DNA of 64,000 bases from NCBI RefSeq assembly GCF_000026545.1, contig NC_011603.1. One strand, written 5' to 3'. How positions within the stretch are numbered: the first letter of the stretch is position 1; the number at the start of each line of letters is the position of its first letter. The position numbers are program-made. Source of the stretch: Escherichia coli O127:H6 str. E2348/69. Its GTDB lineage: Bacteria; Pseudomonadota; Gammaproteobacteria; Enterobacterales; Enterobacteriaceae. Shown piece by piece: positions 1-3,000 of the stretch.

Positions 1-3000
1 TGATCACATAAGCTGTAGCAAGTAAATCATAAACTGTAACTGGTATACAATAAGCTGTGTTATGCAGAGGATATACTGTAATGAGCGAGTGATATAAACT
101 ACAGTGAGTATGCCCCCTGAAAGTTCATCAGGGTTGTGTATAAACTGAAGCCAGTTGTCTGGCGCTTTACAGGCCATCTAATGAAAAGAGTGGCTGCTTT
201 TATTCTTAAACTATCCACCGATCGGAGGCTATCTGGACAAGGACAATCTGGACATAAAAAAGCTGTTTGAAGAGGTGGATAAATCCTCCGGTGAAGTCGT
301 AAATCTTACACCTAATGCCAGTAATACAGTGCAGCCTGTGGCACTGATGCGGCTTGGGGTGTTTGTTCCCACGCTTAAATCACTGAAGAACAGCAAAAAA
401 AACACGCTTTCCCGGACTGATGCGACGGAAGAACTGACGCGCCTGTCTCTCGCCAGAGCCGAAGGTTTTGATAAGGTGGAGATCACCGGCCCGCGTCTGG
501 ATATGGATAATGACTTCAAGACCTGGGTAGGGGTGATTCATTCCTTTGCCCGCCATAAGGTTATCGGCGATAAAGTTGAGCTGCCGTTTGTCGAGTTCGC
601 CAAACTCTGCGGGATCCCCTCCAGTCAGTCATCACGTAAGCTTCGTGAACGTATAAGCCCCTCACTCAAACGTATCGCGGGTACCGTGATCTCATTTTCC
701 CGCACAACGGAAAAGCACACCAAAGAGTACATCACACATCTGGTGCAGTCGGCTTACTATGATACGGAAAAGGATATCGTCCAGCTGCAGGCCGATCCAC
801 GCCTGTTTGAGCTCTACCAGTTTGACCGGAAAGTGCTGCTGCAACTCAAGGCCATCAATGCCCTGAAGCGCCGGGAGTCTGCGCAGGCCCTGTATACCTT
901 TATAGAGAGTCTGCCACGGGATCCGGCGCCGATATCTCTGGCGCGTCTGCGGGCCCGTCTTAACCTGAAATCCCCTGTGTTCTCACAGAACCAGACGGTG
1001 AGGCGTGCCATGGAGCAGCTACGGGAGATTGGCTACCTGGATTACACTGAGATCCAGCGGGGACGCACCAAACTCTTCTGCATTCATTACCGCCGGCCCA
1101 AGTTAAAGCCACCTCATGATGAGAGTGCGGAGAACCCGCAGCTGCCAGCCACAACGGGTGATGTCAGCCCGGAAATGGCTGAAAAACTGAAGCTCCTCGA
1201 GAAACTGGGCATCACCCTTGATGACCTGGAAAAACTCTTCAAATCCCGCTGAACATAAGCTGTAGTGAGTAATCTGTCCCGGTTTACTTACTACAGCTTA
1301 TATTACTGCCTCTGGTGAGTGTTCTGCTCACTACAGCTTATATAAGCAGTGATGAGCGCAGCCCATACCGGAAACACTTCCTTCCTGATCCACAAGCCCT
1401 TCAGAATGGTATTCCTGTTACTGCCGGAGCCCTGCGGACCTGTCGTGTCCCTCATAAATCGTAATCTGCTCACTACAGCTTATGTTGCCTGCTACAGTTT
1501 ATTTCACTCACTACAGCTTATCTCAGGTAGGGTTTACTCACCACAGCTTATATAAACTGTAATGAGTGACGTTGTCACGTCAGAGGGGGGAGTGTCCGCA
1601 GGATCTGCGCGGCATCATGCCCGTCACCGGTGAACGGCACAGCCAGTGTGGCGGCCATGTCCAGCGCGAACACCCGCGTATACACCTCCATCGAGCGCGG
1701 ATCCTTGTGACCGGCCAGCGCCTGAATAACCTTCCGGGGCTGGCGGTGATAGAGCATGTGCATGATATAGCTGTGCCGGAAGGTATGTGGTGTGACCGGA
1801 ATCGAAAAATGCACGCCATCAGCTTCAGCCCGCTTCACCGCTTGTTTCAGCCAGTTGCGCATTGTCTCATCCGTGACCGGCCATAACGGCTCCCGCCGGC
1901 GGGGGCGGGTGGTCACCATCCAGCTCTCCATCTGACGCACAAAAGGGCGCAGACCATCCAGGTCGAAGGATTCCGGGGTGAGTGTCCGGGCTTCACCGAT
2001 ACGGATCCCGGTATTCCACATGGTGGCGAACAACATGTGGTGACGCTGGTCCGGCATATATCAGAGGAGGGCGCTCACTTCCGGTGCTAGGAGGTAAGCC
2101 GGCGTGGCACCTGTTGAGGTGGCCATCCGCCGGAGTGCCACCGCGGTCGCAAAATCAACGCCCGGGGCGATCGGCAATAACGAAACGCGTTCTGGTGAAT
2201 TCTGCAGGGGAATAATGTTGTTCATCGGCTATTTTTCACGTAGCGCACGCACTGGTCATGGATACAGTTATTCTGGCCTGAAAGGCCCGAACCTGCCATC
2301 ACAATAAATCGCAGCGCGCGGATCCTTTTGTTGTCTTATCCCGCATTATTGCGGGAAAAACCAAATGCGTAAAGGATCCTTTTTCTGCTCAAATCCTCCA
2401 TGAAGCCAGTCATGACGCGGGCTGAGGGCTGGTTTACGGTTTTTGGGAGAAATGGGGTAATGCCAGGAGTACCGGAAGTCAAATTCATGGGGATATTGAC
2501 TGTTTATGTACTGGGGGGGGACGGAAATATATAAAAAAAAAAGAAAAAAAGATTATTTTTTTTCTTGGTGCTTGCGTGTCTTTTTTAGTTTTAAGATTAT
2601 TCCGTGACCTATTAATACGGGGGTTTTATAAGGAAAACAGTTTTTATGGTTTCTAAAATCATGAATAAGAAATACGAAAAAGGTCTGTCTTTGATTGAAT
2701 CTGCAATGGTGCTTGCGCTTGCTGCCACCGTTACCGCAGGTGTGATGTTTTACTACCAGTCTGCGTCTGATTCCAATAAGTCGCAGAATGCTATTTCAGA
2801 AGTAATGAGCGCAACGTCTGCAATTAATGGTCTGTATATTGGGCAGACCAGTTATAGTGGATTGGACTCAACGATTTTACTTAACACATCTGCAATTCCG
2901 GATAATTACAAAGATACAACAAACAAAAAAATAACCAACCCATTTGGGGGGGAATTAAATGTAGGTCCAGCAAACAATAACACCGCATTTGGTTACTATC

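Follow-up and report, generated by a model that had tools for sequence, protein, structure and literature searches.

In tyrosine recombinases the catalytic lysine is located on the β2-β3 hairpin (K172 in XerD, K201 in Cre and K235 in lambda Int), and Xer-type members usually possess an N-terminal core-binding domain of about 100 residues. Enterobacterial plasmids encode a relative of these enzymes, a 246-aa tyrosine recombinase whose gene (int) adjoins the RepFIB replicon in more than 5000 plasmid records. The RepFIB int of pS88 has been named only as a "putative site-specific recombinase" (PMC3438092), and no experimental characterization of an intact RepFIB int was found in the literature searched, in which it is mentioned under that designation alone.

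In a family alignment of 50 sequences (26-50% identity), Y44, E49, G73, R180, H181, G202, H203 and Y212 are invariant and R75, K102 and R116 are near-invariant. AF2 modelling of the intact homologue on a deep family alignment gave a structure with a pLDDT of 88.7. By Foldseek, the model matches the fold of XerH, XerA, Tn1549 Int, IntI4, lambda Int and Cre, with a probability of 1.00 for XerH, XerA, IntI4, lambda Int and Cre. The intact homologue shares with the Xer-type enzymes XerD (1a0p, 5dcf), XerA (4a8e, 5hxy) and XerH (5jk0) the same catalytic fold and the residues R75, K102, H177-x-x-R180, H203 and Y212, and the E-values of its family profile are 6e-26 to XerA and 3e-21 to XerD. In the profile-to-PDB alignment, K102 is aligned with the lysine of "IGKG" in XerD and that of XerA, and R116-x-VPL is aligned with "ERLVPL"; this alignment to XerD and XerA points to K102 as the catalytic lysine.

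However, the intact homologue is an orthologue of neither XerD nor XerC, as it scores 57.5 bits against a cut-off of 329.6 for NCBIfam TIGR02225 (XerD) and 48.9 bits against 335.15 for TIGR02224 (XerC). In addition to lacking an equivalog match, it appears from its length to be devoid of the N-terminal core-binding domain: the match to Pfam PF00589 (54.6 bits, profile positions 7-169) begins at residue 49, leaving only about 48 residues ahead. The β2-β3 hairpin of the RepFIB int family also differs from that of XerD and XerA by an insertion, rich in Arg and Lys, of about 11 residues; the copy described here lacks this hairpin.

The int locus of pMAR7

The window (the whole stretch of 64,000 nucleotides analysed, from Escherichia coli O127:H6 strain E2348/69) corresponds to pMAR7 (NC_010862.1), the EAF virulence plasmid of EPEC E2348/69, at 100% identity and with the same coordinates. 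The features of the int locus are as follows.

275-1252, plus strand: repA, the RepFIB replication initiator, a 325-aa ORF (start at 263 in RefSeq, where the product is named "RepB family plasmid replication initiator protein")
1253-1567, no strand assigned: RepFIB iterons, ATAAGCTGTAGTGAGT-like, downstream of repA, comprising repeat families D1, D3 and D4 and inverted pairs I5-I15
1575-2225, minus strand: int pseudogene, 651 nt compared with 741 nt in the intact gene, the remnant of the RepFIB-associated 246-aa tyrosine recombinase
1575-2057, minus strand: residual 160-aa ORF, from an internal ATG to the native stop codon (1575-1577), with an internal deletion inside
1939-1944, minus strand: TTTTGT, the one remaining copy of a 6-bp direct repeat, at the junction of the 90-bp deletion
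2061-2063, minus strand: opal codon TGA in place of TGG (Trp55), one G-to-A transition relative to the closest intact allele
2064-2225, minus strand: N-terminal fragment, codons 1-54, with the family-conserved R32 and the motif P42-x-Y44-L-L-x-P48-E49
2226-2472, minus strand: conserved block upstream of int, joined directly to the bfpA promoter region

The first-pass annotation had described a RepFIB-linked tyrosine recombinase gene interrupted by an in-frame opal codon. The linkage is borne out by repA and the iterons that extend to 1567, as the gap between the iteron end and the int stop codon is 8 bp. Homologous plasmids are arranged alike: the int genes of IncF plasmids (WP_147698637.1 of p1046-3E9 and pS88001 of pS88) occupy the same site after the downstream iterons and are convergent with repA. 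Thousands of IncFIB plasmids contain sequence 91-98% identical to the block upstream of int. A promoter and terminator scan of 1250-2700 revealed nothing above chance; the block contains a single weak promoter-like site (2373-2345, minus strand), which does not exceed the chance expectation.

The opal codon and the 90-bp deletion

Translation and the ORF list confirmed the reading frame as first described: a minus-strand ATG at 2225 opens 54 codons that run into the in-frame TGA (2061-2063), which is followed by TAT and then by the ATG (2057-2055) of the 160-aa ORF. Codons 1-54 encode a segment identical to the intact p1046-3E9 Int at 53 of 54 residues (the sole change is S3N), and the 160-aa ORF matches PF00589 (Phage_integrase) with 52.1 bits against a cut-off of 27.1; the frame is therefore not a chance ORF. 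Alignment to intact int genes, which had been suggested as a check, identified the codon replaced by TGA. It is TGG in the closest intact allele, that of p1046-3E9 (95.8% nucleotide identity, with start and stop codons shared), and TTC (Phe) in more distant alleles. Residue 55 is Trp, Phe or Tyr among intact homologues and, in the AF2 structure, is the last residue of helix 47-55. The stop at this codon cuts the P42-E49 motif off from the catalytic core.

Codons 1-54 also bear on whether the gene might normally start at the internal ATG, the upstream frame being non-coding. The homologues are 246 aa long, and their codons 1-54 have a dS of ~0.64, a dN of ~0.034 and a dN/dS of ~0.05 among intact homologues, values that indicate strong purifying selection. 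Since this segment is under such selection, the internal ATG is not the normal start of the gene.

R75 (in GIRIGE), H177-T-F-R180, H203 and Y212, that is, the box I Arg, the box II His-x-x-Arg, the His/Trp III residue and the Tyr nucleophile, are all encoded in 1575-2057. However, the match of the 160-aa ORF to PF00589 is confined to profile positions 104-169 of 172, and a second lesion, overlooked in the first-pass annotation, lies inside the ORF. Compared with all the intact homologues examined, 90 bp are missing in frame (alignment A1, columns 407-496), by which codons 96-125 of the intact gene are lost and the total coding length is reduced to 216 codons compared with 246. At this site intact alleles read ...CCC TTTTGT TCGG...(90 bp)...AG TTTTGT GCGT.... 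Because strands 95-99 and 115-119 are assigned in the AF2 model, which represents the intact protein, the 30 deleted codons are predicted to comprise the whole β2-β3 hairpin, including near-invariant Lys102 and Arg116 (the R116-x-V-P-L strand).

The int gene of the window is thus very probably a dead copy of the RepFIB-associated 246-aa tyrosine recombinase, inactivated by two independent mutations in the course of ordinary gene decay. A G-to-A transition converted Trp55 (TGG) to an opal stop (W55*), and a deletion between the two TTTTGT direct repeats, probably by replication slippage or a microhomology-mediated event, removed codons 96-125.

Possible products of the interrupted gene

The first-pass annotation had left two options, a gene inactivated by the nonsense codon and a shorter protein begun at the internal ATG. 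The former stands, given the TGA for Trp55, the 246-aa homologues and the PGAP label "internal stop"; the latter finds no support as a functional recombinase, with Y44, E49 and the hairpin gone and no Shine-Dalgarno sequence. Whether translation ends at the UGA, passes through it or restarts at the ATG 3 nt further on, no active recombinase would be expected, because the β2-β3 hairpin with Lys102 and R116-x-V-P-L is missing in every case. This predicted inactivity is based on sequence, conservation and the modeled structure.

A shortened C-terminal protein of 160 aa could nevertheless be synthesized by termination-reinitiation at the ATG at 2057 and act in its own right, for example by binding DNA or through a dominant-negative effect on the intact Int of a co-resident RepFIB plasmid, but we consider this improbable. 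Close stop-ATG spacing is compatible with re-initiation in coupled translation, and the 3 nt between the TGA and the ATG are a suitable distance; TGA-TAT-ATG might permit termination-reinitiation, and the 160-aa polypeptide may be made. It would retain R75, H177-x-x-R180, H203 and Y212 as well as the PF00589 match. However, the 25 nt before this ATG (GGAAGTGAGCGCCCTCCTCTGATAT) contain no Shine-Dalgarno sequence, and the protein would be without Y44 and E49, both invariant, as well as helix 47-55 and the entire hairpin with K102 and R116. Among the matches listed, the shortened gene occurs only in pMAR7 and pMAR2, and in other bfp plasmids the independent frameshift and the absence of int beside IS2 (see below) point to decay rather than to a new function.

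Also very improbable are two further proposals: that the 160-aa fragment is translated by termination-reinitiation and kept for a non-catalytic role (binding of the target site, or poisoning of the intact Int of incoming RepFIB plasmids), or that selection in the E2348/69 lineage favored the loss of Int as stabilizing the bfp-RepFIB junction. The evidence argues against both.

Of the E. coli stop codons UGA leaks most, with Trp inserted by misreading. As the ancestral codon was TGG, read-through by near-cognate tRNA-Trp would restore Trp55 and generate a 216-aa protein, to which residual recombinase function might be attributed. This is very unlikely, as the product would still be without residues 96-125, K102 and R116 included, and the next base is U, a UGA-U context that favors efficient termination. 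Exact look-ups for the deletion-only allele (216 aa outright), the stop-only allele (190-aa ORF) and the intact pMAR-type allele (246 aa) found none of them; these are weak negatives, since any single substitution defeats such a look-up, the first counting slightly against read-through and the second against the 160-aa protein.

Single-base errors occur in older plasmid sequences, but nothing specific favors a sequencing or assembly artefact as the source of the stop or the deletion, nor programmed selenocysteine recoding of the UGA, and both are scarcely conceivable: the former is rejected by the recurrence of the same allele in independent records and in contigs from different public runs (detailed below), and the latter because no SECIS-like structure was detected downstream of the UGA (fold z-score -0.6), no Rfam match was found in 1-3000 and the codon replaced encodes Trp, Phe or Tyr, not Cys.

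Distribution and age of the lesions

The identical copy on pMAR2 (NZ_CP059841.1) is annotated in RefSeq/PGAP as "tyrosine-type recombinase/integrase", pseudogene, "internal stop", and the pseudogene status is therefore already known from public annotation. Over 851 bp, the independent complete records of pMAR7 (NC_010862.1) and pMAR2 (NZ_CP059841.1) do not differ. Among the matches listed from PLSDB and complete E. coli genomes that span the whole query, the others extend over ~941 bp in two pieces compared with 851 bp, and no shortened gene beyond pMAR7 and pMAR2 was found among these matches. The 651-nt allele is also identical in the nine public contigs, derived from different runs, that reach far enough upstream for the whole gene; a tenth contig includes the TGA and the 160-aa ORF only. 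The public contigs with the 160-aa ORF are 99.9-100% identical to pMAR7 over 1.4-5 kb and hence belong to the same plasmid lineage; they are not independent evidence of wider circulation.

Polymorphism among EAF plasmids, raised as a point to check by the first-pass annotation, was found. W55* and the 90-bp deletion seem to be confined to the pMAR2/pMAR7 lineage among the plasmids compared, other EAF-type plasmids having an intact int: the 246-aa gene is present at the same junction in eight other bfp plasmids. In another lineage, two bfp plasmids (NZ_CP027551.1 and NZ_CP039405.1) have the same gene, the same bfpA-int-RepFIB junction and a pseudogene annotation as in pMAR7/pMAR2, but the lesion is an independent frameshift after about codon 170, with neither W55* nor the 90-bp deletion. 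Two E. albertii bfp plasmids have no int at the junction, where IS2 is present.

Compared with the closest intact allele, the int of the window has 21 nucleotide differences, of which 18 are synonymous, two are conservative and one is nonsense; both conservative changes also occur in intact alleles. Inactivation was probably recent, because outside the stop and the deletion the sequence still resembles a gene under purifying selection.

These results replace the picture of a gene with one nonsense codon by that of a pseudogene inactivated twice. The finding is of little importance in itself, and the role of the intact short recombinase beside RepFIB is a more interesting, though peripheral, question. 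Its use lies in the annotation of pMAR2/pMAR7: in E2348/69, a strain in wide use, the 160-aa ORF should not be taken for an active enzyme. Eight bfp plasmids retain the gene, one other lineage has a frameshifted copy and the E. albertii plasmids, which carry IS2 there, have none; EAF-type plasmids can thus lose the RepFIB-linked int, and Int appears to be dispensable for them.

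Sequence context and reading frame of the int copy

The window region is 100% identical, with unchanged coordinates, to the Escherichia coli plasmid pMAR7 (NC_010862.1), and is likewise identical to pMAR2 of EPEC strain E2348/69 (NZ_CP059841.1). The local gene order is as follows.

Features around the RepFIB-associated int copy
275-1252, plus strand: RepFIB repA
1253-1567: RepFIB iterons downstream of repA
1575-2225, minus strand: int pseudogene (the feature in question)
2226-2472: conserved block upstream of int
2646-3227, plus strand: bfpA promoter region, then bfpA

The repA gene is flanked in both orientations by two RepFIB iteron clusters (6-110 and 1253-1567; core ATAAGCTGTAGTGAGT), and the int stop codon is situated 8 bp from the end of the last iteron. 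The 247-nt block upstream of int (2226-2472) shows 91-98% identity across thousands of IncFIB plasmids, including those of Klebsiella. It holds a GGATCC...GGATCC inverted repeat enclosing a CCCGCA-ATAA-TGCGGG hairpin (about 2338-2353) and is overlapped by a 50-codon ORF (2336-2488, minus strand); ORFs of this region are variously annotated by PGAP, the RefSeq pipeline, as "hypothetical protein" or as a partial "serine/threonine protein kinase" pseudogene. The block might be the site of the int promoter or of recombination; promoter and terminator scans gave no signal above chance. Between this block and bfpA (about 2512-2550) there are long homopolymer tracts (T7-C-T10 and C8 on the minus strand). 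Public contig L021 matches the window except for a single gap within 977-2585, possibly in one of the tracts.

Translation of the minus strand of 1575-2225 bore out exactly, in coordinates and frame, the first-pass annotation of an N-terminal segment that runs in frame into a TGA ahead of an internal start. The ATG at 2225 opens 54 codons (MNNIIPLQ...PEVSALL), followed in frame by the TGA at 2061-2063, a TAT, and the ATG at 2057, which opens a 160-aa ORF whose stop codon is at 1575-1577. The segment is not a chance ORF, because it shares 53 of 54 residues with the closest intact homologue. The 160-aa ORF matches PF00589 (Phage_integrase) at 52.1 bits, the gathering score being 27.1.

Intact alleles and two lesions

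Nucleotide matches to the DNA of this locus turned up in more than 5000 PLSDB records and, among complete E. coli genomes, in 3174 records, nearly all plasmids. Where annotated, intact int is a gene of 741 nt (246 aa) that directly adjoins RepFIB and is named "tyrosine-type recombinase/integrase" or "site-specific integrase". Plasmid p1046-3E9 (NZ_CP128593.1; 95.8% nucleotide identity) has the closest intact allele, and alignment of this allele with the window and one more distant allele (A1) exposes both lesions of pMAR7. The codon replaced by the TGA is TGG (Trp55) in p1046-3E9 and TTC (Phe) in pRHB08-C21_2, and across 16 aligned protein sequences only Trp, Phe or Tyr occurs there; the stop, W55*, is evidently a single G-to-A transition. 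The second lesion, which the first pass had not seen, is the absence of exactly 90 bp (30 codons, residues 96-125). In intact alleles a TTTTGT repeat lies on each side of this segment (CCC-TTTTGT-TCGG ... AG-TTTTGT-GCGT), of which the window retains one copy, at 1939-1944. This repeat pattern suggests that the 90 bp may have been lost through slippage or microhomology-mediated deletion. Among the matches listed that cover the whole query, all except pMAR7 and pMAR2 extend over about 941 bp, split into two BLAST segments, versus 851 bp, and therefore keep the 90 bp.

If homologues normally started at the internal ATG, the upstream frame would be non-coding. However, over codons 1-54 two divergent allele groups differ by 29 synonymous versus 4 non-synonymous changes (dS 0.64, dN 0.034, ratio about 0.05), the same regime as in the remaining gene, which confirms that this frame is coding in the homologues and that their normal start is not the internal ATG.

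The int alleles are also mosaic (A1 columns about 630-941). In pMAR7, p1046-3E9, and pRHB08-C21_2, roughly the final 300 nt of the gene and the adjoining iteron region are identical, while dS between allele groups is about 0.5-0.6 in the 5' two-thirds; pRHB08-C21_2 and pEC404/03-1 differ in the 3' part and have nearly identical 5' parts. This pattern suggests recombination breakpoints within int.

Family conservation and predicted products

Searching the whole library by HMMER with intact Int as the query gave 2639 relatives at E <= 0.001, many of them full-length (about 220-270 aa, 26-53% identity). The short recombinases that include the intact RepFIB-linked Int (L003, an intact homologue at 2626-3366) thus form a large and unusually short family with a conserved N-terminal motif (R32, P-x-Y44-L-L-x-P-E49). 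Unlike usual tyrosine recombinases, intact Int has only about 48 residues before its Pfam catalytic-domain match, and from this length it appears to lack the N-terminal core-binding domain. Int is not orthologous to XerC or XerD, since its NCBIfam scores fall far under the equivalog cut-offs. In the 50-sequence family alignment (A3), Y44, E49, G73, R180, H181, G202, H203, and Y212 are invariant, and R32, P42, L45, L46, P48, T72, R75, E78, K102, R116, S182, A184, and T209 are nearly so. Its profile matches XerA (4a8e, E = 6e-26), IntI4, and XerD (1a0p/5dcf, E = 3e-21). K102, in the family's "...tlK", is aligned with the lysine in XerA "ggKG" and XerD "igKG", and R116-x-V-P-L with XerD "ERLVPL". 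This XerD lysine is K172 in the established numbering and is catalytic, being carried by the beta2-beta3 hairpin; the two-residue offset between literature and chain numbering was checked via Y279 in the alignment. The hairpin loop of the family carries a basic (Arg/Lys-rich) insertion of about 11 residues.

AlphaFold2, run on A3, gave a confident model of intact Int (mean pLDDT 88.7, pTM 0.81) with a helix at 47-55, strands at 95-99 and 115-119, and a helix at 123-136; in fold the model matches XerH, XerA, Tn1549 Int, IntI4, lambda Int, and Cre with a Foldseek probability of 1.00. Set against the modeled strands and the conserved residues, the 96-125 deletion takes out both hairpin strands, R116, the loop bearing K102, and the opening turn of the helix that follows. 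The stop at codon 55 severs the N-terminal motif and the first catalytic-domain helix from the remainder. The PF00589 match agrees with both losses: it covers profile positions 7-169 for intact Int but only 104-169 for the 160-aa ORF.

Selenocysteine insertion or programmed recoding at the UGA was rejected, as there is no stable downstream structure (z = -0.6) and no Rfam match in 1-3000, and the ancestral residue is aromatic. If translation ends at the UGA, the product is a 54-aa peptide without catalytic residues. Read-through would probably insert Trp, the ancestral residue, and the resulting 216-aa protein would still be without K102, R116, and the hairpin. Re-initiation at the internal ATG, which follows the UGA by three bases, is mechanistically conceivable, but no Shine-Dalgarno sequence is present upstream of the ATG at 2057 (GGAAGTGAGCGCCCTCCTCTGATAT, then ATG), and the 160-aa product would have neither the N-terminal motif nor the hairpin; the proposal of a shortened functional C-terminal product is thus unsupported. 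Conservation and structure together suggest that no translation outcome would yield an active tyrosine recombinase by family-defining criteria.

Distribution and decay of int among bfp plasmids

Deletion aside, pMAR7 and p1046-3E9 differ at 21 positions: 18 synonymous, two conservative replacements (S3N and R204K, at which some intact alleles share the pMAR7 residue), and one nonsense. Because replacement changes are not in excess, int appears to have been under purifying selection until recently. An exact look-up for single-lesion intermediates, which would have ordered the two events, found none, a weak negative.

A query covering the int-upstream block together with bfpA, in their pMAR7 arrangement, is matched over >=80% of its length by 13 PLSDB records, with a few more having truncated bfpA. 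The locus proved polymorphic among EAF-type plasmids, the point on which the first pass had advised a check. Intact 246-aa int is present at the bfpA junction in eight plasmids (pEC404/03-1, pZ1322MEC0002-2, p90-9133_1, pZ1322HEC0010-2, pZ1323PEC0004-2, pZ1323PEC0011-3, pZ1322HEC0003-2, and pZ1322PEC0082-2). NZ_CP027551.1 (108727-109465) and NZ_CP039405.1, one lineage, carry an independent frameshift, a 2-nt gap after about codon 170, marked "frameshifted" by PGAP. In two bfp plasmids of E. albertii, the stretch fetched next to bfpA holds IS2 and no int homologue. These int states across the surveyed plasmids indicate that the allele with W55* and the 90-bp deletion is specific to pMAR2/pMAR7, and that int was lost more than once among bfp plasmids. 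The bfp operon of the frameshifted lineage is divergent (76.5% identity). In pZ1322HEC0010-2 (L009 4296-5272) the RepFIB initiator gene is annotated as frameshifted and the neighboring int is intact, the reverse of pMAR7.

The exact 160-aa ORF occurs on 23 contigs of public runs. The ten examined all have the TGA, and all nine that reach far enough upstream have the identical 651-nt allele, with 99.9-100% identity to the window over 1.4-5 kb. An assembly artefact is excluded, since the lesions are shared by these contigs. E2348/69 is a very widely used strain; the contigs look like the same plasmid lineage and are no evidence for wider circulation of the lesions.

In RefSeq the identical locus of pMAR2, H4J01_RS25115, already carries a pseudogene label with the note "internal stop", which records only the stop; as far as we have seen, the 90-bp deletion had not been noted before. 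In the literature found, RepFIB int is described only as a "putative site-specific recombinase" (PMC3438092), and no tested function or target site was found there for this Int of more than 5000 plasmid records. By descent the pMAR7 copy is a member of the RepFIB-associated int family, one branch within the tyrosine recombinase superfamily; because it lacks two defining features, an unbroken frame and the hairpin lysine, it is best classed as a pseudogene of that family. The nonsense-pseudogene reading was therefore right, and with two independent inactivating lesions the evidence for it is stronger than first realized. The feature was already known, and represents ordinary gene decay in a well-known plasmid.
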